Shown here one piece after another: positions 16,762 through 51,077 of a stretch of 64,000 nt of DNA. Below the pieces are notes generated by a model, which searched no databases, was not told the DNA's origin, and saw only the letters and a program-made list of their open reading frames with translations. The translations under genes and the position numbers were made by a program. The DNA is from Gemmiger formicilis. Lineage in GTDB: Bacteria > Bacillota_I > Bacilli_A > RFN20 > CAG-826. The first letter of the stretch is position 1. Every line of letters starts with the position of its first letter. The stretch spans positions 12,485 to 76,484 of the forward strand of contig CAVFXI010000015.1 of the NCBI GenBank assembly GCA_963626345.1, written 5' to 3'.

Positions 16762-17854
16762 TTGTTTTTTTATTTCCTAAAAATATAACCTCCCCATCTG
16801 GTGCATCCTTAACTCTTCCAACCCTACCAGAAATTTGGATCAATGCTGAAGAGTTATAAATTTTATGATCTGCATTAAAAATTATTACTTGTAAATTTTT
16901 AACTGTTACACCTCTTTCTAAAACGGCCGTTGTGACAAGATATTTATATTTTCCATGACGAAAATCTTCAATTATTTTGCTCCTTTCCTTTACTTGCGAA
17001 TGAACTCTATTACCATTTGGAACAACCATAGAAATTAATTTAAAAACCTCCTCACATTCATCTATTGTTGCTACAAAAAGAAAGCACGGTTTCTTCATTT
17101 TTTGATAATCTTTTAGCTTTTTTGCTAAATAAATATACTTTGTTGGGCCATAAAGTAAAACTATTTTAGGCACAGGAATTGGCTTCATATGATACCTAGT
17201 ATACAAAGTTACTATTTTATGACCTGGTTTAGAAAATTCATTTATTACTGAAGGGGAAGGCGTTGCCGACATAAGGACATAATTCTTTTTTACACTTCTT
17301 CTAAAAAGACTTATTAAAACTGGGTTGTCTTTATATGGAAATGCATCAATTTCATCCAATATAAGTAAATCAAAATATTTTTCATATCGATAAAGTTGAT
17401 GGGTTGTTAATACGATAATATCGCCCACTAATTCACTTGTGCTACCTCCAAAAACACTAACAACTTTATTGTTTATGAAAGTTTTTGATAGTCTTACACC
17501 AAGTTCACTAACTACATCTTTTCTAGGTATGGCAAAACCAACTCGGTACGCATTTTTCAAAGCATATTCAATGACTTTAAAAACAAGTTCAGTCTTACCT
17601 GCTCCACAAACAGCATAAATTAGTGTGTTGATTCCATTAATATAGTTATCTCTTACTTCTTCAGAAATTCTAACCTGTTCCTTGCTTAAAGGATACTTGA
17701 TTATTGCATCTGAATTGGTTGGCGGCAAAAACGTTTCATCTTTATCGACTTTTTCACCCATAAAAGAGATACACCTTCTGCAGTAAGGTTTACCATTTTT
17801 ATAACCAACATACCTTGGGTTACTGTTCTTACAAATTGGACATACAAATTCCAT
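16697..17854 (-). CDS. comFA: competence protein ComFA (DEAD/DEAH helicase)
   Basis: N-terminal zinc finger (CPICK...CRRC), Walker A AVCGAGKTE, DEID box. Start placed at MEFVCPICK, which has a GAAGGGGAA SD 7 nt upstream. The ORF-track N-terminus begins at a TTG within the leader. Coordinate of the start +/-1. Confidence 0.8.
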   Translation of the reverse strand: MEFVCPICKNSNPRYVGYKNGKPYCRRCISFMGEKVDKDETFLPPTNSDAIIKYPLSKEQVRISEEVRDNYINGINTLIYAVCGAGKTELVFKVIEYALKNAYRVGFAIPRKDVVSELGVRLSKTFINNKVVSVFGGSTSELVGDIIVLTTHQLYRYEKYFDLLILDEIDAFPYKDNPVLISLFRRSVKKNYVLMSATPSPSVINEFSKPGHKIVTLYTRYHMKPIPVPKIVLLYGPTKYIYLAKKLKDYQKMKKPCFLFVATIDECEEVFKLISMVVPNGNRVHSQVKERSKIIEDFRHGKYKYLVTTAVLERGVTVKNLQVIIFNADHKIYNSSALIQISGRVGRVKDAPDGEVIFLGNKKTNDMEEAIRKTKEANSHLQKLL

Positions 17855-17899
17855 AAAAAATTCCCCTTCACTATTAATAGGGGGGGAATTCAAAAAATT
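17855..17899 (-). repeat. Copy 1 of the 45-nt leader cassette AAATTTTTTGAATTCCCCCCCTATTAATAGTGAAGGGGAATTTTTT just upstream of the comFA ATG. It has a C7 tract, and the hairpin arms AATTCCCC/GGGGAATT take in the SD
   Basis: Near-identical copy at 42448..42492 upstream of an unrelated gene. The C7 run follows from the ORF-track translation NSPPINSEGEFF. Confidence 0.7.
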
Positions 17900-17913
17900 T
17901 TCACTTTTTTTAA

Positions 17914-18351: not shown

Positions 18352-18992
18352 TTTATTTTCTCCTTGATTTCTTCTAATGATAATTTACCTTTTCTTATTA
18401 ACGAAATTTTATCTCCATCAATTTTTATTATAGTTGATGGAACACCTTTTTCACAATTGCCTTCAATTACCCCATCAATTTCCCCCTCAAATTCAGATAT
18501 GACACTATTAGTATTCATACATGGTTCTTTACCAGATTTATTACATGAAGGCACAAAAAGTGGTTCATTTACAGCATCAATTAATTTTAAGACAAATTCA
18601 TCATTAGGAATTCTAATTCCAACAAATCCACTTCCATGATCAATGCAATATGGTATCCCTTCCTTTGCTTTAACAATAATAGTTAAAGGACCAGGCATAA
18701 ATTCTTTAACTATTTTCTTAGAAATTTCATTAAATTCAATATACGTTTCGACCTGTTTTATATTTGAACACATTAAAGTAAATGGTTTTTCAGGAGGTCT
18801 TTTTTTAACTTCAACTAACTTATTATAGTTTTCTAACTTGGGTGCTTTAACACCTAATCCAAAAACAGTTTCTGTAGGAAAAGCTAAAAGACCATCATTT
18901 TTTAAAATTTCGCTAGCTTCTTTAATTTGATTTTTCTTCAAGATTTTCAATATTATAGCCTCCAAAGATAAATAAATATCTATCTTTACCAT
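18348..18992 (-). CDS. tsaC: L-threonylcarbamoyladenylate synthase (YrdC/YwlC/Sua5 family)
   Basis: FPTETVFGLG signature. Start moved to the internal Met (MVKIDIYL) to limit overlap with prmC. Confidence 0.8.
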   Translation of the reverse strand: MVKIDIYLSLEAIILKILKKNQIKEASEILKNDGLLAFPTETVFGLGVKAPKLENYNKLVEVKKRPPEKPFTLMCSNIKQVETYIEFNEISKKIVKEFMPGPLTIIVKAKEGIPYCIDHGSGFVGIRIPNDEFVLKLIDAVNEPLFVPSCNKSGKEPCMNTNSVISEFEGEIDGVIEGNCEKGVPSTIIKIDGDKISLIRKGKLSLEEIKEKIK

Positions 18993-37942: not shown

Positions 37943-38572
37943 TCATTTATTTTTCTGTTTTTTCTCAGAAGCCCTTTTCACATAATCACCGAGATATGGA
38001 AATATAACAATCAATAAACTAAATAAAAAGGCAATCCAGAAAACAAATACTGGTTCATAAGATTTAAAGAAAAAATAAAAAGAAGCTGAAAGAGACCAAA
38101 AGAATAACAAAAGCAAAGTTCTGCTATATTTAAGTCTTCCAGTAATCAAATTTATTATAAAAATAGTTAATGGAATAAACGGAATTATAAATAATAATCC
38201 TGCATATTTTTCAACAGAATCGTAAATTGAACGGACGCTTAATAAGGAAACTTCTAAAATGATAATTATCGTAATAAAAATAATTAAAATAAAAATTATT
38301 TTGATCCAAATTTCTCTTTTTTTGATTGCTGCATCTAATATCTTTTCATCCACATCTTTAAAATCATGTTCTTCAAATAAATATTCAATTGGAACACCAA
38401 AAAAATCTGCAATTTCTTTTAACATTTCCGCATCAGGAAGAGAATCCCCTCTTTCCCATTTAGAAATAGCTTTATTACTATAATGCAATTTATCTGCCAA
38501 CTCGCTTTGAGTTAGCTTTTTACCTTTTCTTAAATAGGTAATATTTTTTGCAATAATTTCCTTTGTGCTCAT
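37943..38572 (-). CDS. membrane-anchored XRE-family HTH regulator
   Basis: N-terminal HTH_3 (LTQSELADKLHYSNKAISKWERG) followed by three hydrophobic helices. Confidence 0.7.
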   Translation of the reverse strand: MSTKEIIAKNITYLRKGKKLTQSELADKLHYSNKAISKWERGDSLPDAEMLKEIADFFGVPIEYLFEEHDFKDVDEKILDAAIKKREIWIKIIFILIIFITIIIILEVSLLSVRSIYDSVEKYAGLLFIIPFIPLTIFIINLITGRLKYSRTLLLLFFWSLSASFYFFFKSYEPVFVFWIAFLFSLLIVIFPYLGDYVKRASEKKQKNK

Positions 38573-38653
38573 ACATAAATATTAATTCAAAACAAATAAA
38601 AAAGCGACCATCAATTTAATGTGGTCGCCTTTTGAAAAAGAGAAAAAATTTTC

Positions 38654-39283
38654 TTATTTAGATTCTGGTTTATCTTCAATATCACCAACAACTTGTGAAT
38701 CAACAAAATTGTTGAATTTTTTTGCATGGTGAACAACATATAAAGCAAAACAAAGTTGAACAACCCCAGCCATTATTAAAATAATGCCAACCAAAACAAA
38801 TAATACTGAAACAACATTATTTCCAGCTCCACTATAATAAACACCAAGAACAGTTGAACCTAATGCTGAACCAATAATACCGAACACCAATTGCAAAACT
38901 TGGATTGTTGAACACCCTAAGACTATAAATCCCTTTAATGCTCTTACAATCAAAATTATGCCAAACCCAATTAAACTAACACCAATAATCAATGGCAAAA
39001 GTTCAACTAAAAGCAATGGGTCAACAAATAATAAAATTGATAAAACAACCAAAATTAAACCGCTTAAAAAATCGCCACTCAATAAAGGTGCACTAAATGT
39101 AATAGATGCGACAACAAGTAAGATGCCGTTCATCATAAAATAAACACCGACCATGTAGCCAATAAATGCATATAAATTAGCGTTGTTATTAAAACAAATA
39201 ATTAATATACCAAGAATAATTAATAATGCTGCTTCAATATATACGGTCCATTTCCATCTCCCAAAAATTTCTTTCATTTTCAT
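38654..39283 (-). CDS. DUF308/HdeD-like multi-pass membrane protein
   Basis: 212 aa, about 6 TM, Gly/Leu-rich helices. Start moved to the ATG after the GGAGG SD. Confidence 0.55.
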   Translation of the reverse strand: MKMKEIFGRWKWTVYIEAALLIILGILIICFNNNANLYAFIGYMVGVYFMMNGILLVVASITFSAPLLSGDFLSGLILVVLSILLFVDPLLLVELLPLIIGVSLIGFGIILIVRALKGFIVLGCSTIQVLQLVFGIIGSALGSTVLGVYYSGAGNNVVSVLFVLVGIILIMAGVVQLCFALYVVHHAKKFNNFVDSQVVGDIEDKPESK

Positions 39284-39371
39284 AACCTCCAACTCTTATT
39301 ATAAGATAATATTTTTTTAATTAAATCTATAAAGAGTAGATTTTTTTGATTTTTTTATTTATATAAATAAC

Positions 39372-40715
39372 TCACTCTAATGATTCAACAGCTTTTAAGA
39401 TTTTAAAATCAGTAATTTTCTTCTTTAATTTCTCAAGTGTTTTGTCTTGAATCTTTCTACATTCATCAATTATATCGTTTGCAGATGATTGAATTGTTTG
39501 AGCTTTCTTTAACATATCTTCAATCGATTTATTAAGCGAAGAAAAAGACTTAACCAAAATTTCTTCTTTAAAATCTTCAAACATTTTTATAGCTTCTTCT
39601 TTATTTATTAAATCTTTTCTCTCGGTGGTAATATAGCTTGCATATTTCACAGAAAGCGATGCAAGCAAACTTAAAAAAGTCATAAAATATTCAGGTCTAA
39701 CAACATACATTTTGTCGTATTCGCTTACTCTAAAAACTGGCGCATCATTAACAGCCCTGTCTCTTTCAAGATTACTTACCAAAATAGCATAATCGCATTT
39801 CTTTTTTCTTCGATCAGTATCAAGTTTCTTATAGTGTTCACTATTTTTATTTTTTGAAGTACTATTTGGATTCTTATCTTTCATATCTAAAAGAACAGAT
39901 GTTAAAAGGGTATTCTCTTTTTTAGAAGAATCTGCATAAACTTTAAAAATAAAATCGCCTTTGGTTTTCTTTGAATCAAGTTCATCTTCAACCGCAATAT
40001 TGTCTTTAATCCATTCGCAATTTTCAAATCCATATATTGCATGCTCTTGATATTGGTTGTCACACCATTGCTCTAAGTTTTCGCCAAGATCTTTAATTCC
40101 AACCATTGATTTTGCAAAAGTTAATGAATTGTTTTGGGCTTCAAGTTCTTTAATTTTTGCATTCATTTCTTTTTCTTTATTTTGAACTGCTTCACTTACT
40201 TTAATATCGACTTTACTTAGTTCCAATTTTAAATTACTTATTTCTTCATCTTTAATTTGTTTAACTTTATCAATTTCTTTCATCTTTTCGACTTCATACT
40301 TTGATTCAATAAGTTTTTTGTCGTTTTCAAGAGTAGAAATTTTATTTTCGTAAGAATTTTTGATTTGTTCTTTTGCAAGCCTTAAATCACTATCTTTTAT
40401 GCTATTCATTTTTTCAATTTCGGAATTTAATTGATTAATTTTGTCTATTAATTTTTGCTTATCTTCGTTATTTTCGCTTTCACACTCTAATTTGATTTTT
40501 TGAATTTCTAAAGTGTGCTTCTCATTTTGCGCTTTTAATTCCTTTTCAAGCATTGAACGAAATTCAATCTCTTTTTCTTTATTTATTAAATTTTGAAGAA
40601 AAGAAACATCTACTTTATTTAATGTTGCCAAATCGATAATGTCACCTTTTTTCGCATCTTCTAATAATTCAATTTCAGTAGAATTGTTTACTTTAATTTT
40701 ATCGTTTATGTTCAT
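39372..40715 (-). CDS. coiled-coil protein with a C-terminal PD-(D/E)xK-type nuclease-like domain (RmuC/DUF2130-like); third gene of the XRE-ImmA operon
   Basis: About 200 aa of Lys/Glu heptad-rich coiled coil. Then GIKDLGENLEQW...KGDFIFKVYAD...VLLDMKDK...CDYAILVS, with the D...(D/E)xK spacing seen in RmuC/DUF2130 proteins. 4-nt start/stop overlap with the ImmA gene. Confidence 0.5.
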   Translation of the reverse strand: MNINDKIKVNNSTEIELLEDAKKGDIIDLATLNKVDVSFLQNLINKEKEIEFRSMLEKELKAQNEKHTLEIQKIKLECESENNEDKQKLIDKINQLNSEIEKMNSIKDSDLRLAKEQIKNSYENKISTLENDKKLIESKYEVEKMKEIDKVKQIKDEEISNLKLELSKVDIKVSEAVQNKEKEMNAKIKELEAQNNSLTFAKSMVGIKDLGENLEQWCDNQYQEHAIYGFENCEWIKDNIAVEDELDSKKTKGDFIFKVYADSSKKENTLLTSVLLDMKDKNPNSTSKNKNSEHYKKLDTDRRKKKCDYAILVSNLERDRAVNDAPVFRVSEYDKMYVVRPEYFMTFLSLLASLSVKYASYITTERKDLINKEEAIKMFEDFKEEILVKSFSSLNKSIEDMLKKAQTIQSSANDIIDECRKIQDKTLEKLKKKITDFKILKAVESLE

Positions 40716-41272
40716 AATTGTTCCTTTCTTTCCTTTTCTTTTTTCATTTCTTTTATTCTTTTAAATGCTGCGTATGTTGCACATTCAGGGGAAACACAAC
40801 AATTATTCTCAATTTCTTCAACAGACATATCTTTTGTTTCTGCTGGCGGAACAAGAAGGTACCCTGCTAATGCATTTGCTTGCCATTCAGGATCTTTATA
40901 TGCTTGTGGTTTTTCTTCTGATTCCTTTGGATGTCTACCAGTTACTGTCATTAAAAAGAAATGACATAATTCATGTGTTAGTGTAAATCTACAACGTGGA
41001 TCATCACAACATGCTCCATCAAATTGCGATTCTTTAATAAATAAAGTGTTAGTTAAAAAATCATATTTGGCTAATTCCCCTTCACCAAATATTTTGTTGT
41101 TATCATCTAAAATTTGATACTCAAAATCCAAAAAGTTTTCGTTATTTTGCATAGACTCTAAAACATCAACAATAGGAAATTTTAGACTCTTACAATTAAA
41201 TAAATTCCTTATATTCTCTGCATATACTTTTAGTTGATGAGTATTTGTAGGAGCACAGAAATAATAAGACAC
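40712..41272 (-). CDS. ImmA/IrrE-family zinc metallopeptidase (CapP-like)
   Basis: HEXXH (LTHELCHFF) followed by the family signature PEWQANALAGYLLVP. Confidence 0.8.
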   Translation of the reverse strand: MSYYFCAPTNTHQLKVYAENIRNLFNCKSLKFPIVDVLESMQNNENFLDFEYQILDDNNKIFGEGELAKYDFLTNTLFIKESQFDGACCDDPRCRFTLTHELCHFFLMTVTGRHPKESEEKPQAYKDPEWQANALAGYLLVPPAETKDMSVEEIENNCCVSPECATYAAFKRIKEMKKEKERKEQL

Positions 41273-41273
41273 T

Positions 41274-41636
41274 TTATTTTTTCTCCTCCTCTTCTAATAG
41301 CTTTTTAAGTTTATCGAGAGTATTTGGATCAATATTTTTAATAGACCTTGCAAACATTAAAGAAACATTTTGTTGCTCTGCATCCATTGTTTCTAAATTC
41401 AAAGAGACTTTTTGCTGCGTAATATCAAAAGCATTTTGCAAATCTCTTTTTTGTTCATTGCCCAAATTATAAATATTTGAAATGTCCTCGACCCATTTTG
41501 CTGGAATGTTCTTTTTCCCAACTTCTACTGCGCTGAGAAACGAAGTGCTAACATTTAGTTTTTCAGCCATATCTTTCATATTTTCAAAATTATCTAATCT
41601 AATATGACGTAAAACTTTTCCAAATTCTGTGTACAT
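41274..41636 (-). CDS. XRE-family HTH regulator (CapH/ImmR-like), first gene of the operon
   Basis: HTH_3 (MYTEFGKVLRHIRLDNFENMKDMAEKLNVSTSFLSAVEVGKKNIP). Start placed at the Met with a GGAGGGA SD 7 nt upstream; a sigma70 promoter lies inside the ORF-track N-terminus. Confidence 0.8.
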   Translation of the reverse strand: MYTEFGKVLRHIRLDNFENMKDMAEKLNVSTSFLSAVEVGKKNIPAKWVEDISNIYNLGNEQKRDLQNAFDITQQKVSLNLETMDAEQQNVSLMFARSIKNIDPNTLDKLKKLLEEEEKK

Positions 41637-41651
41637 ATGGGTCCCTCCACT

Positions 41652-41680
41652 ATAATAAAATAAATAAATTTGCTTGTCAA
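41652..41680 (-). promoter_or_regulatory. near-consensus sigma70 promoter of the XRE-ImmA-nuclease-like operon
   Basis: Minus strand reads TTGACA-17 nt-TATTAT, then AGTGGAGGGACCCAT ATG. Confidence 0.6.
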
Positions 41681-41748
41681 CCATAAAGGTTGATAAATTT
41701 AACTTAATTTGTTTAAATTCTTTTCTACAAAATAATTATACAAGAATC

Positions 41749-42447
41749 TTATTCTTTTTCTTTAAAAAGTTTTATTTTTTCAAACTCTTTTTCTTCTAAT
41801 GGATTGTATTTATATTTTTTAATCATTTTTATAATTCTTTTTGCAACTTTATAGTCATTAAATAATTTTATTAGTTCATCATATATCTTTTGAATTAATT
41901 CTTCTAACGATCGCCCTTTTATAAACTCAACTTCAGTATCGCTAACCATTTCAAAAGTAAAACCTTCTAAAACAAAACCATCAATTAATAAAAGCACAAT
42001 TTTTATATAAAACAAAAATAGATTGGTTAAATTTTTCCTATGACTTCCTTTTTTCGCAGTTTTAATATTCTTAAAAATCTCAAAATCTTCAATAGAATAA
42101 CCACGAGGCAAACAGTAAATTAAAATAAAACAATTAATTAGCGATTCGCTTTCTTCATTAAACTTATTTCTTAAGATTTTTTCTTTTTCAAAATGGGCAT
42201 AAAAATTAACTAATGAATCACTAATAAAATAATCTCTGCAGTCTTTATTTATATATGTAGCTTGAAAATAATAAGATATCAAAACTGCATAAAAAGTTAT
42301 TCTTTCAATTTCATTAAATTTTTCATCTACTGAAATATCATAATTTTTAAACAAATCTAAAATATTCTTCTTTATATTATAAAAAGAAGTAAAACAACTT
42401 TCTTGGATGGTTCTAACCTTCCATTTATACTTAACATCGAAAATCAT
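41749..42447 (-). CDS. hypothetical protein, 232 aa, no recognisable domain
   Basis: ORF with an SD (GGGAGGAA). Its leader is the second copy of the C7 cassette. Confidence 0.5.
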   Translation of the reverse strand: MIFDVKYKWKVRTIQESCFTSFYNIKKNILDLFKNYDISVDEKFNEIERITFYAVLISYYFQATYINKDCRDYFISDSLVNFYAHFEKEKILRNKFNEESESLINCFILIYCLPRGYSIEDFEIFKNIKTAKKGSHRKNLTNLFLFYIKIVLLLIDGFVLEGFTFEMVSDTEVEFIKGRSLEELIQKIYDELIKLFNDYKVAKRIIKMIKKYKYNPLEEKEFEKIKLFKEKE

Positions 42448-42492
42448 AAAATTCCTCCCTTCACTATTAATAGGGGGGGAATTTAAAAAATT
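42448..42492 (-). repeat. Copy 2 of the 45-nt leader cassette AAATTTTTTAAATTCCCCCCCTATTAATAGTGAAGGGAGGAATTTT, with a C7 tract
   Basis: 37 of 37 core positions match copy 1 at 17855..17899. Placed between the stop of the 77-aa HTH gene and the ATG of the 232-aa gene. Confidence 0.75.
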
Positions 42493-42510
42493 TTTAAAAA
42501 ATTTTAAAAA

Positions 42511-42744
42511 TTAATTCGTTGCTTTTCTAACTAATACATAAATATCGTTATTTCTATCATAAATTAATTCACGTCCATCTCTCATGAATGTAAGATAATT
42601 ACGAATACTTTTCAAATAACGATAAAAAGACACATCAGTAATTTGAAGTTTGTCAGTTATTGACTTTTTTTCCATGCGCCCTCTTGTTTCAAGAGTTTCA
42701 AGCATGTATAGTAATGCGATACTTTTTCTCATTTTTATCCCCAA
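42511..42744 (-). CDS. small winged-helix DNA-binding protein (HTH_11/DeoR-N-like; resembles the N-terminal domain of WYL-type regulators)
   Basis: 77 aa; ...KKSITDKLQITDVSFYRYLKSIRNYL fits the HTH_11 pattern (VS.RTI.RDI..L). Confidence 0.4.
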   Translation of the reverse strand: MGIKMRKSIALLYMLETLETRGRMEKKSITDKLQITDVSFYRYLKSIRNYLTFMRDGRELIYDRNNDIYVLVRKATN

Positions 42745-42922: not shown

Positions 42923-43507
42923 ATGGAAAAAACGATTTATTTAATGAGACATGGAAGAACAATTTTTAACATTTTAAAGATTGTTCAAGGTTATGGTTCT
43001 GATAGCCCATTAACTATTAAAGCACGCAAAAAGGGGAAAGAAATCGCTAAATATATATGCGAGAAAAACATTAAATTCGATAACGTTTATGCAAGCGATA
43101 CAATGCGTGCAACAAAAACTGCAAAAATAGTTACAAAAAATAAATATAAAGTAATCAAGGTAAGAGACTTAAGAGAATTAAAATTTGGTGATTTAGAAAA
43201 AACTCACCAACATTTATCCTTCACAACAATTTTTGATACTCCTGGTTCTTTTGATGCATTTAATGGCGAAACTCCTGAGCAAGGTGCAAAAAGAATTTAT
43301 GATTGCTTAACTTCTTTAATCGAAAAGGAAGAAAACAATCAAATATTATGCGTTTCTAGTTCTTGTGTAATGATGAGTTTTTTAAAATATTATGCAAACG
43401 ATAGATATAAAAAAATTAGAGAAATAAATCGTTTCTTAAATTACACAACAATTGTCATAACTTATGAAAATGGAAAATTCAAAGTTAAGGATATAATTGA
43501 ATTCTAG
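42923..43507 (+). CDS. histidine phosphatase (phosphoglycerate mutase-family) protein
   Basis: RHG catalytic motif (LMRHGRTIFN); 194 aa. Confidence 0.8.
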   Translation: MEKTIYLMRHGRTIFNILKIVQGYGSDSPLTIKARKKGKEIAKYICEKNIKFDNVYASDTMRATKTAKIVTKNKYKVIKVRDLRELKFGDLEKTHQHLSFTTIFDTPGSFDAFNGETPEQGAKRIYDCLTSLIEKEENNQILCVSSSCVMMSFLKYYANDRYKKIREINRFLNYTTIVITYENGKFKVKDIIEF

Positions 43508-43629
43508 TTTTCTATAAATCTAATTTTTAGTTTTTTCAATTTATCACTAAAAACTATGTTTTTATAATGTTATAATATCAAAGATTTCTATTGAGGAAAT
43601 TAATTTAATTAATGAAAGGAGTCTTACTC

Positions 43630-44322
43630 ATGGAATACTCAGCTGAAATAAAACACATGTGTACAGTAAGAAACGGATGTGATGCTGGCGTTAGCCCACT
43701 CCCAGAAGAAGGAAAATGGGTTAAAGTTAAAGAGATTAAAGATATCTCTGGATTAAGTCATGGTATTGGTTGGTGCGCTCCACAACAAGGTTGTGCAAAG
43801 CTCACTCTTAATGTCAAAGATGGAATTATTGAAGAAGCTTTAGTTGAAACTATTGGATGTTCAGGAATGACTCATAGTGCTGCTATGGCTGTTGAAGTTT
43901 TACAAGGAAAAACCTTACTTGAAGCTGTTAATAGCGATCTTGTTTGCGATGCAATTAACGTTGCTATGAGAGAAATCTTCAAACAATTTATGTATGGTAG
44001 AACTCAAACTGCTTTCAGTGAAAATGGTTTACCAGTTGGATCATCACTCGATGATTTAGGAAAGAATTTAAGATCACAAGTCGGAACTATGTTTGCTAGT
44101 AAAGCAAAAGGTCCACGTTACCTTGAAATGACTGATGGATACGTTTTACACTTAGGTCTTGATAAAAATGATGAAGTTATTGGTTATCAATTTGTTAACT
44201 TAGGCAAAATGATGAAAGCCATTAGAGAAGGCGTTGATCCAAAAGAAGCTTATGAAAAAGCTATCGGAACCTATGGACGATATAAAGACGCAGTCAAAAC
44301 TATCGATCCAAGAAAGGAATAA
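43630..44322 (+). CDS. IscU/NifU-like FeS scaffold homologue (divergent; partner of the GGGtGRT protein)
   Basis: MEYSAEIKHMCTVRNGC...GWCAPQQGCAKLTLNVKDGIIEEALVETIGCSGMTHSAAMAVEVLQGKTLLEAV...LVCDAINVAM parallels IscU (YSEKVIDHYENPRN...CGDVMKLQIKV...GCGSAIASSS...GKSLDEA...HCSILAED) with three Cys retained. Start at the ATG after an AAAGGAG SD. Confidence 0.65.
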   Translation: MEYSAEIKHMCTVRNGCDAGVSPLPEEGKWVKVKEIKDISGLSHGIGWCAPQQGCAKLTLNVKDGIIEEALVETIGCSGMTHSAAMAVEVLQGKTLLEAVNSDLVCDAINVAMREIFKQFMYGRTQTAFSENGLPVGSSLDDLGKNLRSQVGTMFASKAKGPRYLEMTDGYVLHLGLDKNDEVIGYQFVNLGKMMKAIREGVDPKEAYEKAIGTYGRYKDAVKTIDPRKE

Positions 44323-44327
44323 TTATC

Positions 44328-45326
44328 ATGGTTACATTTGAAAATTATGAACGTAGAAAAGATTCTATCGATGCATGTTTAAAAGCTAATGGAATTAAAG
44401 ATTTAGAAGAATGCAGAGCAATGTGCCTTGAAAAAGGTGTTGATGTCGAAAAAATCGTTAAAGGTGTTCAACCAATTTGTTTTGATAACGCTGTTTGGGC
44501 CTATACTTTAGGTTGTGCTATTGCTATCAAACGTAATGTTAAAGAAGCTGAAAAAATTGCTGTTTGTATTGGTGAAGGTTTACAAGCTTTCACAGTTCCA
44601 GGAAGTGTCGCAAATATTCGTGAAGTCGGTTTAGGTCATGGAAATCTTGCTAGCATGCTTCTTGATGAAAAAACAACTTGTTTCTGTTTCTTAGCAGGTC
44701 ACGAATCATTCGCAGCCGCTGAAGGCGCAATTGGTATCGCTTTAAATGCTAACAAAGTTAGAAAGAACCCAATCAATGTTATCTTAAATGGCTTAGGAAA
44801 GAATGCTGCATATGTCATTAGCCGTATTAATGGCTTTACATATGTTCGTACAGAACTTGATAGACACACCAATACATTAAAGATTATTGATGAAATTAGA
44901 TTTAGTGAAGGCGATCGTGGAAATATTCGTTGCTATGGATCTGATGATGCCACAGAAGGCGTTGAAATTATGAAACATGAAAACGTTGGCGTTTCAATTA
45001 CTGGAAACTCAACCAACCCAACACGTTTCCAACACATCGTTGCTGGTCAATATAAGAACTGGTGCTGGAACCACGGAAAGAAATACTTCAGTGTTGCTAG
45101 TGGCGGCGGAACTGGTCGTACATTACACCCAGACAATATGGCTGCTGGTCCATCAAGTTATGGTTTAACAGATAATATGGGTCGTATGCATGCCGATGCT
45201 CAATTTGCAGGTAGCTCAAGTGTTCCTGCTCACGTTGAAATGATGGGCTTAATCGGTATGGGAAATAACCCAATGGTCGGTGCTAGTGTTGCTTGCTCAG
45301 TCGCTGTTTACGAAGCATTAAAGTAA
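44328..45326 (+). CDS. GGGtGRT-family uncharacterised protein
   Basis: 332 aa containing the literal GGGTGRT heptapeptide (aa 259-265; nt 45102..45122). Translationally coupled to the IscU-like gene (6-nt gap, SD AAAGGAA). Confidence 0.6.
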   Translation: MVTFENYERRKDSIDACLKANGIKDLEECRAMCLEKGVDVEKIVKGVQPICFDNAVWAYTLGCAIAIKRNVKEAEKIAVCIGEGLQAFTVPGSVANIREVGLGHGNLASMLLDEKTTCFCFLAGHESFAAAEGAIGIALNANKVRKNPINVILNGLGKNAAYVISRINGFTYVRTELDRHTNTLKIIDEIRFSEGDRGNIRCYGSDDATEGVEIMKHENVGVSITGNSTNPTRFQHIVAGQYKNWCWNHGKKYFSVASGGGTGRTLHPDNMAAGPSSYGLTDNMGRMHADAQFAGSSSVPAHVEMMGLIGMGNNPMVGASVACSVAVYEALK

Positions 45327-45349: not shown

Positions 45350-45386
45350 AAGCATCTTGTTAAATTCAAGATGCTTTTATTTTTCA
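45350..45386 (+). terminator. intrinsic terminator of the iscU-like/GGGtGRT operon
   Basis: AAGCATCTTG-TTAAATT-CAAGATGCTT stem followed by TTTATTTTT. Confidence 0.75.
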
Positions 45387-45392
45387 AAAAAT

Positions 45393-45407
45393 ATATACGT
45401 TTTGGGC
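45393..45407. repeat. intergenic motif copy A: ATATACGTTTTGGGC, followed by TTTTTT
   Basis: Member of the ATATACGTTTYGGSC family. Confidence 0.6.
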
Positions 45408-45479
45408 TTTTTTAAAATCTTAAAAGTAAAGATGTAAATTATATTTGAGCCAATCACTATTAATTCATGCGTGAACCAC

Positions 45480-45504: not shown

Positions 45505-45520
45505 CTAATTTTGAAATTTA

Positions 45521-45535
45521 ATATACGTTTCGGCC
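45521..45535. repeat. intergenic motif copy B: ATATACGTTTCGGCC
   Basis: Identical 15-mer to copy C; sits 5 nt past the M18 gene stop codon (45541) on the minus strand. Confidence 0.6.
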
Positions 45536-45540
45536 TCTTT

Positions 45541-46812
45541 TTATAATTTTGCGTTATAAAATTCTTTAATTAATGAATACATATATTCAACATCTTTTGA
45601 ACCCGCAGTTTCATAACTTGAATGCATTGCAAGTTGTGCGCAGCCAATATCACAGGTTCTAATTCCAATTTGTGAATTACTTAAAGTTCCTAAAGTAGAT
45701 CCGCCTCTTATATCACTTTTGTTATAGAAAATTTGGAAAGGAATTTCTTTACTTTTGCAAAGCGAGATAATTGGTGCTGCAGTTTCTGCATCACTCATAT
45801 ATGCCATATTACTATTAAACTTAATAATTGGCCCTTTATTTAAATAAACTAAATTATTTGAGTCGCTTAATTCAGGATGATTTGGATGAACTGCATGTCC
45901 ATTATCAATTGATAAATTAAATGATCTTGCCATTGCTGAGAAAAATTCGTTTTCACTAAAATTTAAAGAATTTGATATACGTTTTAGTGTATTTTTTAAG
46001 AAATCACCATCTGCACCAGAATAAGTTTTACTGCCAATTTCTTCATTATTAAATGCGGCAAAAACAGAAATATTATCATTGTTACTTTCTAAAAATCCTC
46101 TTAAGCTTAAATAAGCACTTTCTAAATTATCAATTCTTGGAGACATAACAAATTCATCATTTGCTCCGCCAACATAACTTTTTGTGAAATTATACGTATT
46201 TAATTCATATGTGATAATTTTGCTTTCTTCAATGTTCAAATATGAACTAAGCTCTTTCAAGATTGAATTTTCTTCGCCACCTAGAGAAATAATAGGTTTT
46301 AAATCAATATCTTCGTTATATTTAAATCCATCATTAATCTGTCTATTAAAATGAATACAAACGTTAGGGATTATTAATAATGGTTTTTCAATATCAACAA
46401 ATTTTGTTTCGAATTTTCCATCATTTTCAACAATTACTCTACCAGCAATAGATAAAGGTCTATCAACCCAACTTGATAAGATTAAGCCACCATATTTTTC
46501 AATATTTAATTTATGATAACCATTCGTTACAACATCCTTTTCCATTTTTAATTTTAAACATGGAGAATCTAAATGCGACGATGCAATCGTGAAATTATAG
46601 TCTTTTATTTCGCAAGGAATTTTAAAAGCAATTACTCCGCTATCATTTCTAATCATGAAATAATTCTTGCCATATTCTAAAGAAAAATTCATTTTTTCAT
46701 CTAACTCAATAAAACCATTTGCTTTTAAGATTTCTCTAATATTATTTGCTGCATTAAATTCGCTATGTGTATGATTTAAAAAATCTAACAATCCTTCTAA
46801 AATGTAATTCAT
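45541..46812 (-). CDS. M18-family aminopeptidase (aspartyl aminopeptidase-like)
   Basis: SSHLDSPCLKLK (M18 HxDSP region) and C-terminal GCAQLAMHSSYE. Confidence 0.75.
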   Translation of the reverse strand: MNYILEGLLDFLNHTHSEFNAANNIREILKANGFIELDEKMNFSLEYGKNYFMIRNDSGVIAFKIPCEIKDYNFTIASSHLDSPCLKLKMEKDVVTNGYHKLNIEKYGGLILSSWVDRPLSIAGRVIVENDGKFETKFVDIEKPLLIIPNVCIHFNRQINDGFKYNEDIDLKPIISLGGEENSILKELSSYLNIEESKIITYELNTYNFTKSYVGGANDEFVMSPRIDNLESAYLSLRGFLESNNDNISVFAAFNNEEIGSKTYSGADGDFLKNTLKRISNSLNFSENEFFSAMARSFNLSIDNGHAVHPNHPELSDSNNLVYLNKGPIIKFNSNMAYMSDAETAAPIISLCKSKEIPFQIFYNKSDIRGGSTLGTLSNSQIGIRTCDIGCAQLAMHSSYETAGSKDVEYMYSLIKEFYNAKL

Positions 46813-47030: not shown

Positions 47031-47714
47031 ATGGAAGATAAGGTACGGGTAATTGAGCTCAAAGAGAGTGTTTTTAAAAACAACGACGAAAAAGCTAACG
47101 AATTAAGAAAAGAACTCAAAGAAAATGGTGTATTCTTACTTAATTTGATGTCAAGCCCAGGAAGCGGAAAGACAACCACACTAACAAAACTCATCAATCG
47201 AATTAAAAACGAATTTAAGATTGGGGTTATGGAAGCAGATATTGATGGAGATATTGATACAAGCGACATAATCAAAAACACCGGGGTAAGTGCTATTCAA
47301 CTTCATACAGGAGGAATGTGCCACTTAGATGCCGGTATGACAAAACAAGGTTTAGATAGCCTAGAAAGTTTGAAAGATTTTGATTTAATTTTTCTAGAAA
47401 ATGTCGGCAATCTTGTATGCCCAGCTGAGTTTGATACAGGAGCTTCGAAGAGTGCAGTTATTCTCTCAGTTCCTGAAGGCGACGATAAACCACTCAAATA
47501 TCCACTTATGTTCGAAAAAGTTGATCTAGTTATAATCAACAAAATAGATGTTAAAGAATATTTCGATTTTGATTTCAAACAATGCGAAGAATGGATAAGA
47601 ATGAGAAATAAAAATTGCAAGATAATAAAAATATCTGCAAAGACTGAAGAAGGATTAGATGAATTGGCTGAATTTATTAAAAGTGAAGTGAACACTTGGA
47701 AAGGAAATGAATAA
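47031..47714 (+). CDS. hypB: Ni-insertion GTPase HypB
   Basis: P-loop SPGSGKTT, CH motif GGMCH, and ENVGNLVCPA (HypB-specific; UreG differs). No N-terminal His/Cys-rich metal-binding tail. Confidence 0.85.
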   Translation: MEDKVRVIELKESVFKNNDEKANELRKELKENGVFLLNLMSSPGSGKTTTLTKLINRIKNEFKIGVMEADIDGDIDTSDIIKNTGVSAIQLHTGGMCHLDAGMTKQGLDSLESLKDFDLIFLENVGNLVCPAEFDTGASKSAVILSVPEGDDKPLKYPLMFEKVDLVIINKIDVKEYFDFDFKQCEEWIRMRNKNCKIIKISAKTEEGLDELAEFIKSEVNTWKGNE

Positions 47715-47716
47715 TT

Positions 47717-50623
47717 ATGCCAGAACAAAATAAAAATAAAGAAGTAGTTTCAAAGTATCAAGGAGAGGCAAATCCTGATCAAGAGATTTTAAAACTCGCT
47801 AAGAAAATTACTGATGTTGTTGCTCACAAACTTAAAGGCGTTACAAGCAACGACCCAGAATATTGGGGTTTAAGAGAAGTTCTTACTCATGAAGAAGCAG
47901 TTGTTTTAAACAAAATGAAGTTAAGAAAACTTTATACAATGGAAGAACTCATTAAAATGAATCCTGACATTGAACCAGCTGAACTCCAAAAAATGTATGA
48001 TACCATGGCAATTAAAGGTATTATCGAATACGATTATGGAGATAACTATAACGATGATGGACCAATCAAAGATGCTCCAAAAATTAAACGTTATAAACTT
48101 TCATTCTTCGTTCCAGGTTCAGCAGAACTTTTCAACTCAACGTATCAACAAATCGATGAAAAGCCACCAGTTGCATCTTTCTTTGAAAGAATGACATTTA
48201 TTCCACTTGCTGGTGTTACTGAAATGGTACCTCCAGGTGGTGATGGAATTGGTATGCACGTTATTCCTGTTGAAAAAGCAATTGAATTTAATAACGAAGC
48301 AATTAAATTAGAAAAAATTTCCTATTGGTTAAAAAAATATAGTGGTCACCTTAGCGCTGGAACCTGTTCTTGCAGACTTTCAAGAGCTAAATTAGGTGAT
48401 GGTTGTGCTGATGATGGACACGACTGGTGTATTCAAGTTGGCGATATGGCTGACTATTGTGTTGAAACAGGAAGATCACACTACATTACACATGAAGAAG
48501 CTTTAAGAATTTTAAAACGTTCAGAAGAAAATGGTTTCGTTCACCAAATCACAAATATTGATGGACCAGACAAAATCTTTGATATTTGTAACTGTGATGT
48601 AAAGATTTGTAATGCTTTAAGAACAAGCATGCTCTTCAATACTCCAAACCTTTCAAGAAGCTCATATACTGCAAAAGTTGATCCAGCAAAATGTGTTGCT
48701 TGCGGATTATGTGTTGAATATTGTCCAGGTGGTGCTGTTAAACTTGGTCAAAAATTATGTAGAAAAGATGGAACTGCTCAAGTATATCCAAAAGCACCTT
48801 TACCAGATAGATTAAAATGGGGTAAATATGCTTGGGATGAAAATTATAGAGATACAGCTAGAATGACTAATACCTATAAAACAGGTAGCGCTCCATGTAA
48901 GGCAGCATGTCCAGCTCACGTTCCTGTTCAAGCTTACTTAAAGAAAGCTCACGAAGGAAAATTTGCTGAAGCATTAGAATTAATTAAGACTGCTAATCCA
49001 TTCCCAGCAGTTTGTGGACGTATTTGTAACAAACGTTGCGAAGAAGAATGTACTCGTGGTGATATTGATAAGGCAGTTTCAATTGATGCAGTTAAGAAAT
49101 TTATTGCTGATAAAGATATTAATTCAAAGACAAGAGTCATTCCTCAAAAAGTTATGCCAACTTGTAATGATGAAGGATTCAGTGAAAAGATTGCCATTAT
49201 CGGCGCAGGTCCAGCTGGTTTAAGTGCCGCTTACTTCTTAGCTTTACTTGGATACAAACCAACAGTCTTCGAAAAGAACGCAAGACCTGGTGGTATGATG
49301 GTTTATGGAATTCCTACATATAAATTAGAAAAAGACGTTATTGATGCAGAAATTGAAGTCATTAAAGAACTTGGTGTTGAAATTAAATGCAATACTGAAG
49401 TTGGTAAAGATGTCACTATTGATGAACTCAAGAAACAAGGATATAAAGCCTTCTATGTTGCAATCGGTTGCCAAGGCGGAAGACTTCCTGGAGTCCCACA
49501 TGAAGACGCAAATAATGCATTAATCGCTGTTGATTATTTAAGACATTCATTTGAACATCAAGATGAAAAATTTGAAGGCGATGTCGTCGTAGTTGGTGGC
49601 GGAAACGTTGCAGTTGATTGTGCAAGAACAGCCCAAAGACTTGGTGCAAAAGCTGTCACTATGGTTTCACTTGAAACTAGAGATATTATGCCAGCAAGCA
49701 AAGAAGAAATTGAAGAAACCCTTGAAGAAGGCATCAATATCTTAAATGCTTATGGTCCAAAAGAACTTCAAGTTGATAAAAACAATAATGTTACAGCTGT
49801 TGTTTTCAAAAAATGTACAAAATTATATGATGAAAATCATAAATTCAGTCCTGAATATGATGAAAATGATACAGTCACTGTTCCAGCAAGCAAAGTCGTC
49901 TTTGCTATCGGTCAAACCGTTGTTTGGGGCGATTTATTAAAAGGAACAAAAGTTGAATTCACACATGGTGTCTACCCAGCAGCTGATAAATTAACATTCC
50001 AAACTGCTGACCCAGACATTTATGTTGGTGGCGATGTCTTCACTGGTCCAAAATTTGTAATTGATGCAATTGCTCAAGGACATTTCGTTGCTGAATCATT
50101 ACATAGACATGTCCATGCTTCAGAAGGTGCACATCCAACTATTGGTTTAGAAAGACATAACTTCACTGCTTTTGACAAGAAAGACATTCAATATCCACAA
50201 GGTTATGATAATGCTGGAAGACAAGAAGCAGGAATGGATGAAAAAGTTGATTATAAACATTCATTTAAAGATGCTCACTTAACATTAACCGAAGAACAAG
50301 TTAAGATTGAAACTGGAAGATGCTTAAGTTGTGGTGCTTCTGTTGTTGATCCAAACAAGTGTATTGGTTGTGGTATTTGTACAACTAAATGTAAATTCGA
50401 TGCAATCCACTTATTCAGAGATCATCCAGAAATGAGTACAATGACTATTGCCGAAGATAAAGTCGGTGGTTTGTTAAAATATAGCTTAAAACGTGGCATC
50501 AAGATTCTTCTTCATAGCGGAAGCAAAGAAGCTAAAGAGATGAAGAAACGTAGAAAAGAATTCAATAAAAACAAAGAATTCTTAGAAAAGAATCCAAATA
50601 CTGGCAATTCAAACAATGCATGA
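47717..50623 (+). CDS. YgfK-like large FeS flavoprotein oxidoreductase: Cys/His-rich N-terminal domain, two ferredoxin-type clusters, GltD/NfnB-like FAD/NAD(P) domain, C-terminal 4Fe-4S
   Basis: 968 aa; CVACGLCVEYCP, APCKAACPAHVPV...CGRICNKRCEEEC (GltD N-terminal type), dinucleotide fold IAIIGAGPAGLSAA and VVVVGGGNVAVDCA, C-terminal CIGCGICTTKC. N-terminal GTCSCRLSRAKLGDGCADDGHDWCIQVGDMADYC. Flanked by hypB and hypA with 2-nt gap and 8-nt overlap. Confidence 0.65.
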   Translation: MPEQNKNKEVVSKYQGEANPDQEILKLAKKITDVVAHKLKGVTSNDPEYWGLREVLTHEEAVVLNKMKLRKLYTMEELIKMNPDIEPAELQKMYDTMAIKGIIEYDYGDNYNDDGPIKDAPKIKRYKLSFFVPGSAELFNSTYQQIDEKPPVASFFERMTFIPLAGVTEMVPPGGDGIGMHVIPVEKAIEFNNEAIKLEKISYWLKKYSGHLSAGTCSCRLSRAKLGDGCADDGHDWCIQVGDMADYCVETGRSHYITHEEALRILKRSEENGFVHQITNIDGPDKIFDICNCDVKICNALRTSMLFNTPNLSRSSYTAKVDPAKCVACGLCVEYCPGGAVKLGQKLCRKDGTAQVYPKAPLPDRLKWGKYAWDENYRDTARMTNTYKTGSAPCKAACPAHVPVQAYLKKAHEGKFAEALELIKTANPFPAVCGRICNKRCEEECTRGDIDKAVSIDAVKKFIADKDINSKTRVIPQKVMPTCNDEGFSEKIAIIGAGPAGLSAAYFLALLGYKPTVFEKNARPGGMMVYGIPTYKLEKDVIDAEIEVIKELGVEIKCNTEVGKDVTIDELKKQGYKAFYVAIGCQGGRLPGVPHEDANNALIAVDYLRHSFEHQDEKFEGDVVVVGGGNVAVDCARTAQRLGAKAVTMVSLETRDIMPASKEEIEETLEEGINILNAYGPKELQVDKNNNVTAVVFKKCTKLYDENHKFSPEYDENDTVTVPASKVVFAIGQTVVWGDLLKGTKVEFTHGVYPAADKLTFQTADPDIYVGGDVFTGPKFVIDAIAQGHFVAESLHRHVHASEGAHPTIGLERHNFTAFDKKDIQYPQGYDNAGRQEAGMDEKVDYKHSFKDAHLTLTEEQVKIETGRCLSCGASVVDPNKCIGCGICTTKCKFDAIHLFRDHPEMSTMTIAEDKVGGLLKYSLKRGIKILLHSGSKEAKEMKKRRKEFNKNKEFLEKNPNTGNSNNA

Positions 50624-50960
50624 GCTAGGAATCGTATTTTACGTCATTGATTCAGTTGAAAAAACTTGCAAAGAAAATAACGTAAAAGAAGTTAAAAGCG
50701 TTACATTAGAAGTTGGTGAAGTCTCCACTATTGTCCCATCATACTTTGAAGATTGCTTTAAATGGGCAATTAGGAAGACTGAATACATGAAAAACTGTAA
50801 ACTCAACTTAATCACTATTAAAGCTTTGACTTATTGCAAACACTGCAAAGAAACATATGACACCGTAACTTATGGTCGCCAATGTCCTCATTGTGGATCT
50901 TATGACACTTATCTTGTTACAGGAGATCAATGTAACATTAAAGATATAGAAGTTATATAA
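50616..50960 (+). CDS. hypA: Ni-metallochaperone HypA
   Basis: N-terminal MHE Ni-binding motif and a zinc module CKHC...CPHC; 114 aa. Confidence 0.85.
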   Translation: MHELGIVFYVIDSVEKTCKENNVKEVKSVTLEVGEVSTIVPSYFEDCFKWAIRKTEYMKNCKLNLITIKALTYCKHCKETYDTVTYGRQCPHCGSYDTYLVTGDQCNIKDIEVI

Positions 50961-50971
50961 AAGCATATTAA

Positions 50972-51012
50972 ATGCACGCATTAAACATCAAGTTTCATGC
51001 GTGCATTTTTTT
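50972..51012 (+). terminator. intrinsic terminator of the hypB-ygfK-like-hypA operon
   Basis: ATGCACGCAT-15 nt loop-ATGCGTGCAT followed by TTTTTTT. Confidence 0.75.
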
Positions 51013-51020
51013 AAAATTTC

Positions 51021-51035
51021 ATATACGTTTCGGCC
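51021..51035. repeat. intergenic motif copy C: ATATACGTTTCGGCC
   Basis: 8 nt after the hyp operon terminator T-run; followed by the minus-strand SDR gene terminator (51043..51077). Confidence 0.6.
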
Positions 51036-51042
51036 TTAATTT

Positions 51043-51077
51043 AAAAAAACTCATTCGTAATAACCACGGATGAGTTT
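51043..51077 (-). terminator. intrinsic terminator of the SDR gene
   Basis: Minus strand reads AACTCATCCGTGGTTATTACGAATGAGTT followed by TTTTTTT. Confidence 0.6.

Follow-up and report, generated by a model that had tools for sequence, protein, structure and literature searches.

A divergent IscU-fold protein and a GGGtGRT-family protein form a conserved two-gene operon and are probably an iron-dependent iron-sulfur protein of strict anaerobes

Layout of the operon

The 64,000-nucleotide stretch of Gemmiger formicilis contig CAVFXI010000015.1 analysed here (the window) carries a two-gene operon that encodes a divergent homologue of the iron-sulfur (Fe-S) cluster scaffold IscU and, directly downstream, a protein of the GGGtGRT family (Pfam PF14057). 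An earlier note, made from the letters alone, had drawn attention to this pair and had suggested that it acts in metallocentre assembly together with a nearby hypB-ygfK-like-hypA operon. Our analysis removes this misleading association and indicates that the pair is probably an iron-dependent Fe-S protein of strict anaerobes. PF14057 proteins and their partners are among the most conserved proteins lacking an assigned function in anaerobes, and the genes of the pair rank among those that iron limitation represses most strongly in Bacteroides and Clostridium. Assigning its function would fill a gap in gut-anaerobe metabolism or metal homeostasis and would add a new use of the IscU fold. The window copy is a further member of a known family and brings little new biology in itself; it is a clean and compact example.

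Gene 1 occupies positions 43630..44322 of the forward strand, as judged from the list of open reading frames (ORFs), the start site and the alignment of homologues. Its longest ORF is open from 43612 (236 aa); the true start is almost certainly the ATG at 43630, because an AAAGGAG lies 8 nt upstream and homologues begin at the equivalent M-x-Y-S. The product then has 230 aa, one fewer than previously counted. Gene 2 (44328..45326, forward strand; ORF list and Pfam) starts 5 nt past the stop codon of gene 1, is preceded immediately by an AAAGGA ribosome-binding site and encodes 332 aa. A consensus scan placed a promoter-like site, TTATCA-16 nt-TATAAT with 10 of 12 matches, at 43541..43568 (forward strand), in the gap that separates the pair from the His_Phos_1 gene upstream; such sites were not more numerous than in shuffled sequence, and this one is a candidate only. 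A terminator scan identified an intrinsic terminator with a 10-bp stem followed by a T-run at 45350..45385 (forward strand; -14.4 kcal/mol, z -5.4). The pair is an autonomous, translationally coupled two-gene operon with its own promoter-like site and a strong terminator. All peptides quoted in the earlier note are present in the translations, namely GWCAPQQGCAKL, GCSGMTHSAAMA and LVCDA for the first protein and ICFDNAVWAYTLGCAIA, TTCFCFLAGHE, NWCWNHG and GGGTGRT for the second.

The IscU-fold partner carries a re-wired four-Cys site

The first protein, hereafter the partner, passed the Pfam model NifU_N (PF01592) marginally, with 23.1 bits against a gathering score of 22, and a precomputed Pfam match is absent from most of its homologues. 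Its scores were far below the curated cut-offs for IscU (TIGR01999, 23.4 versus 192.4 bits, residues 61-107 only), clostridial NifU (TIGR03419, 26 versus 187.9 bits) and SufU (TIGR01994, 19.5 versus 92.5 bits). Comparison with E. coli IscU by hhalign gave a probability of 87% (E 4e-6) over IscU residues 34-93 only, and the three-dimensional fold of IscU is retained. The NifU_N and hhalign matches bear out the description of this protein as a divergent IscU/NifU homologue. Its C-terminal extension of ~100 aa, which distinguishes it from the IscU/NifU N-terminal scaffolds, is real as well; it has no Pfam match, and lenient Pfam scans of the sub-domains revealed no extra domain.

Cysteines of the partner are numbered here on the 236-aa ORF, so that C55, C61/62, C83 and C112 stand for C49, C55 (C56 in most homologues), C77 and C106 of the 230-aa protein. 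Among 47 distinct homologues C55, C83 and C112 are invariant and are accompanied by one Cys at position 61 or 62; the window protein has C61, and 46 of 47 others have C62, a shift of one residue. A divergent clade with 50% identity keeps all four. By both HMMER and hhalign, only C83 aligned with a canonical IscU ligand (Cys63), and the other three invariant Cys are new relative to the scaffold. Opposite IscU Cys37 the partner has Gln, Asp39 is deleted, and Tyr-Gly stands opposite His105-Cys106. The claim that the protein tracks IscU through all three Cys-containing segments thus holds for the middle Cys, and the other canonical ligands are unaligned. No LPPVK chaperone-binding motif is present in the partner sequence, and the alignment with E. 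coli IscU stops at residue 93. Like Cys106 in IscU, C112 stands at the N-terminal end of a long predicted helix, and it may be a structural substitute for that residue. The N-terminal motif M-x-Y-S-x-x-V of IscU is kept. The partner combines the fold of IscU with a re-wired four-Cys site and is not a canonical IscU or SufU scaffold; SufU is, like it, an IscU-fold variant with an altered ligand set.

Conservation and predicted structure of the GGGtGRT protein

The 332-aa protein matched PF14057 over the entire model (positions 1-327 of 327) with 603.5 bits and an E value of 1.1e-181, the gathering score being 27 bits. The family name is Pfam's: the earlier note had pointed to an NCBIfam/TIGRFAMs family, and no family in NCBIfam release 20.0 matched at E <= 0.01. 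The literal GGGTGRT occupies residues 259-265, and G259 to T265 are invariant in at least 167 of 168 distinct sequences. With one exception allowed, 140 of the 332 positions are invariant in this set; conservation is highest at residues 121-160 and 221-320, and the protein is ~70% identical between Bacillota, Actinomycetota, Bacteroidota and Elusimicrobiota. Invariant His residues are found at positions 104, 125, 267, 288 and 302. The Cys-rich stretches that had been thought significant do not stand up to this comparison. C118 is the sole conserved Cys (167/168) and is replaced by His or Asn in the divergent clade, and all others vary freely.

In an AlphaFold2 (AF2) model with a predicted local distance difference test (pLDDT) score of 80, the protein consists of a helical N-terminal domain (~7-112) and a Rossmann-like alpha/beta domain (~118-257), followed by an ultra-conserved Gly-rich region (258-318). 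A strand at 150-156, the loop G155-L-G157-K-D-A160, a helix at 158-168 and a second strand at 171-178, which ends in D178 (Asp in 163/168 sequences), are predicted to form a classic dinucleotide-binding beta-GxGxxA-alpha-beta unit. The predicted three-layer alpha/beta arrangement, this unit and the acidic end of the second strand are shared with Rossmann-type domains such as those of SDR, KTN/TrkA, GT-B nucleotide-sugar and YjeF proteins. The GGGtGRT protein has no sequence-profile match to any of those families, and neither its N-terminal helical domain nor the invariant region 258-318 has a counterpart in them.

Sequence and profile searches of the PDB returned no relative among solved structures, and a Foldseek search with the model gave nothing at E <= 1e-3 (E >= 0.04, TM-score <= 0.28). 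Two candidate kinships were tried and rejected. The GGGTG motif recalls the GGGTG[ST]G signature of FtsZ/tubulin, for which the hhalign probability was 0.6%. Phosphofructokinases, suggested by Foldseek and by a Bacteroides screen described below, appeared among the structural matches at non-significant values (E >= 0.057, TM-score 0.25), and hhalign against E. coli PfkA gave a probability of 0.3%.

An exhaustive search of 1.84 billion cluster representatives recovered essentially one full-length 50% cluster and the one divergent clade; the remaining matches were fragments or chimeras. Over-long entries that might have been natural partner-GGGtGRT fusions (P0008, P0010, P0011, P0013, P0121 and P0131) are chimeric metagenome assemblies, with internal gene duplications or a fused ABC ATPase. 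One GGGtGRT protein (P0516) is annotated in a metagenome-assembled genome (MAG) of a Methanobacteriaceae archaeon; the family may reach methanogens, or this MAG may be contaminated.

Pairing is constant across genomes and neighbourhoods are not

We scanned species-representative genomes and obtained 80 loci from Clostridia, Christensenellales, Oscillospiraceae, Collinsella, Bacteroidaceae and Elusimicrobiales, which were dereplicated to 42 groups and whose flanks amount to 1.19 Mb. In 78 of the 78 loci with upstream DNA, a full-length partner (62-76% identity) lies directly upstream of the GGGtGRT gene, and the divergent clade keeps the same pairing. Co-occurrence with an IscU homologue, which the earlier note had mentioned, is therefore constant in the loci examined, as are gene order and adjacency. 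Both genes are under extreme purifying selection. The described pairs of a PF14057 protein and an adjacent NifU homologue (BT0173-BT0174 of B. thetaiotaomicron; F502_05012 of C. pasteurianum) have the same full-length match, motif, gene order, tight coupling and four-Cys partner, and nothing substantive sets the window pair apart from them; it belongs to a MAG of an uncultured low-GC member of the Bacilli and has Cys 61 in place of 62.

Clustering of 1150 ORFs from the 80 loci revealed no recurrent third partner, as no family occurs in more than 4 of the 42 groups. No IscA or HscB homologue was found in any group, and HscA-like and Fdx-like matches occur in one group each. An IscS-like desulfurase, SufB/C/D/U and Rrf2 lie near the pair in Collinsella only (1/42 groups), and genomic context thus does not make the pair ordinary SUF or ISC components. 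In Collinsella (L023, 1465-7366, and ~26 further loci) Rrf2 and a complete sufC-sufB-sufD-sufS-sufU set precede the pair at a distance of 1.3-1.9 kb, with a reverse-strand gene in between (IS200-like in L023). A gene for an L-aspartate-oxidase/fumarate-reductase-like flavoprotein was observed 3' of the Collinsella pair.

A relative with 87% identity conserves the synteny DUF2130 / M78 / ... / His_Phos_1 / pair / M18 peptidase. The direct upstream neighbour of the pair in the window is a gene of the histidine-phosphatase superfamily (His_Phos_1, 42923-43507, forward strand), and a His_Phos_1 gene takes the same place in this relative (L083, 6581-7168). The divergent clade has an extended operon (L088, 3715-8606; L091, 2572-8580; also L089 and L090). 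It encodes an 83-aa Zn-ribbon protein (seen in L088-L090), an ApgM-type phosphomutase (PF10143), a 222-aa four-Cys partner, the GGGtGRT protein without C118, a protein of 317-326 aa whose N-terminal segment is hydrophobic and which has no match in Pfam, and a His_Phos_1 phosphatase. We rejected His_Phos_1 and ApgM as general neighbours of the pair, as no homologue of either occurs in the 80 other loci.

Published expression and phenotype data

Expression of the pair follows iron supply in two anaerobes. In B. thetaiotaomicron, BT0173-74 (GGGtGRT and NifU) were 11- to 12.8-fold down in iron depletion, in a table that also lists nrfAH, hcp, hydrogenase, ferritin and rubrerythrin (PMC10434189). 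Early in growth, the GGGtGRT protein F502_05012 of C. pasteurianum was 7.1-fold higher in the presence of iron, the pattern also shown by hydrogenase-1 (PMC5395762). The pair is reported to be abundant across gut and rumen anaerobes (PMC11204068, PMC7035244, PMC12078515), and both proteins are abundant in metaproteomes of gut and rumen. Transposon mutants of BT0173-4 grew normally on glucose; the insertions caused a 2-fold derepression of Cur/Roc, a read-out of a glycolysis-linked regulator, and were recovered in the same screen as pfkA (bioRxiv 10.64898/2026.04.10.717545). In keeping with the earlier note, no function assignment was found in the papers containing 'GGGtGRT' that were examined, which are omics or screening reports.

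The nearby hyp operon and a dispersed repeat

The proposal that the pair works with hypB, an Fe-S flavoprotein and hypA in nickel or mixed metallocentre assembly started from two correct observations. The genes for HypB (47031-47714), a GltD/YgfK-family Fe-S flavoprotein of 968 aa (47717-50623) and HypA (50616-50960), all on the forward strand, lie 1.7 kb downstream of the pair, and both operons end in a strong hairpin and T-run (z -5.4 and -6.4) followed by ATATACGTTTYGGSCT. Set against this, the two are distinct transcription units, divided by a convergent gene for an M18 aminopeptidase (45541-46812, reverse strand), and no HypA or HypB homologue occurs in the 80 loci or their flanks (0/42 groups). 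The 87%-identical relative, the closest examined, keeps His_Phos_1, the pair and the M18 gene, but NagB-like, aldolase and GGDEF genes follow in the place of hyp. Because HypA and HypB are absent from the 42 groups and from beside the pair in this relative, their proximity in the window is local and recent, not functional. We regard a joint role as highly improbable, the comparative context having effectively refuted it.

The shared 3' motif fared no better as a sign of linked function. A pattern search for ATATACGTTTYGGSCT gave three exact occurrences (45393, 45521 and 51021) and two that differ at a single position (5728 and 18739), where 0.16 occurrences are expected by chance. It is the core of a 38-nt dispersed repeat (family D2), detected by pattern and repeat search at 45381..45418, with further copies at 45509-45546, 51009-51046 and, degenerate, 18727-18764. 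The repeat is always on the forward strand and just after terminator-like hairpins; none of the 92 fetched loci contains it, the 87%-identical relative included. Since the motif also ends the convergent M18 gene, with an exact copy of the repeat, and recurs at 18.7 kb, it is a genome-specific dispersed intergenic repeat rather than a regulatory signature common to both operons.

The three hyp-region genes make up a single operon in which start and stop codons overlap. The 968-aa flavoprotein has a Cys-rich N-terminal region of ~380 aa, and its best NCBIfam match is PRK12771 (452 bits, below cut-off). An oxidoreductase placed between two nickel chaperones is unusual.

Possible functions of the pair

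Our leading interpretation, offered tentatively, is that the pair is a heteromeric Fe-S, nucleotide-binding redox enzyme. The two genes would encode two subunits of one iron-dependent protein of strict anaerobes. The IscU-fold subunit, without the labilising Asp and the chaperone-docking LPPVK, would hold a stably bound Fe-S cluster by four Cys ligands. The GGGtGRT subunit, which would be of Rossmann type with a GxGxxA loop, a second invariant Gly-rich loop (GGGTGRT) and no universally conserved Cys, would bind a (di)nucleotide or a phosphorylated ligand. The two subunits together would make an abundant redox enzyme, sensitive to oxygen, which the cell shuts down under iron scarcity in an iron-sparing response, as it does hydrogenase, PFOR, Rnf and rubrerythrin. 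A bolder form of this proposal, which we hold with somewhat greater doubt, is that the pair represents a new class of heteromeric Fe-S protein, in which the Fe-S scaffold fold was recruited to serve a Rossmann-type protein of otherwise new architecture as its permanent subunit with a four-Cys cluster, and that it runs a highly expressed, iron-gated core reaction in strict anaerobes of at least five phyla, possibly including methanogens.

Several points weigh against the redox-enzyme interpretation. Cofactor, complex and activity are predicted for every member of the family. The Rossmann assignment depends on an AF2 model made from a shallow alignment, and NAD/FAD-binding Pfam models did not match the GGGtGRT protein even at E 10. 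Residues 260-299, the most conserved stretch, have a pLDDT below 50 in that model; with its GGGTGRT motif, this stretch would fit a ligand or partner interface. We know of no precedent for the IscU fold as a permanent redox subunit. By analogy with SufU, the four Cys could bind Zn instead of an Fe-S cluster. Finally, the retained M-x-Y-S motif and the proximity of sufCBDSU, seen in every Collinsella locus with enough upstream DNA, point toward cluster biogenesis; in IscU, the N-terminal region with this motif contacts the desulfurase.

These last points are the starting point of the main rival, an accessory module for Fe-S assembly, carriage or storage, which we consider rather unlikely. The IscU-like subunit would transiently build or hold clusters, perhaps drawing on the free sulfide of anaerobic, sulfide-rich habitats, and the GGGtGRT subunit would be a nucleotide-dependent helper. 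The IscU fold itself and the homology over residues 34-93 add to the case, and the ferritin-like, iron-positive regulation would also suit storage. However, the pair generally lacks the desulfurase and chaperone genes that accompany scaffolds: SUF proximity is confined to one of 42 lineages, no IscS-like desulfurase was found in the other 41 groups, IscA and HscB are missing throughout, and in Collinsella a separate SufU is already encoded next to the pair. C37, D39, H105, C106 and LPPVK of IscU are absent by alignment, and a four-Cys site predicts a stable rather than a labile cluster. Known assembly systems, for example E. coli suf, are induced by iron limitation, whereas the pair is repressed more than 10-fold, and its abundance is unusually high for an assembly factor. 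If the partner were instead a SufU-like, zinc-dependent sulfur-transfer protein, with the pair inserting sulfur into a cofactor or RNA, zinc would not account for the strong dependence of expression on iron; nor do the SufU score of 19.5 bits against a cut-off of 92.5, the lack of a desulfurase neighbour in 41 of 42 groups or the absence of a PP-loop or other thiolation-enzyme signature favour such a role, which we judge to be very unlikely.

A role in central metabolism is slightly easier to entertain, and we still think it improbable. The pair would be a non-redox Fe-S enzyme of the dehydratase/lyase type, or a mutase, acting on a phosphorylated central metabolite, with GGGTGRT as the phosphate-binding loop. 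It would account for His_Phos_1 as direct neighbour in the window and its 87%-identical relative, for the ApgM-type phosphomutase and His_Phos_1 in the operon of the divergent clade, for the recovery of BT0173-4 along with pfkA and for phosphofructokinases being the highest-probability, non-significant Foldseek matches. These associations do not extend to the 80 other loci, and the kinship with PfkA is contradicted by the hhalign and Foldseek values given above. Dehydratase-type clusters use an open iron site, which four Cys ligands would not leave.

Remaining features of the window

The rest of the window carries housekeeping genes, among them those for UvrB, SecA, DnaX, CTP synthase and SHMT. 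Among the window ORFs scanned there was no Ni enzyme (hydrogenase, CODH or urease) and no Fe-S biogenesis system. A scan of the window for riboswitches and other RNA elements at Rfam gathering scores returned one tRNA only. Upstream of the His_Phos_1 gene, the block at 37943-42744 contains XRE-type HTH genes, an ImmA/IrrE-like M78 peptidase, a DUF2130 protein and small unannotated ORFs, and resembles the remains of a mobile or defence element; its DUF2130 and M78 portion is syntenic in the 87%-identical relative. A repeat search also identified a 50-nt element with a CCCTTCACTATTAATAGGGGGGG hairpin in two copies (17852-17901 and 42445-42494) that are 88% identical.

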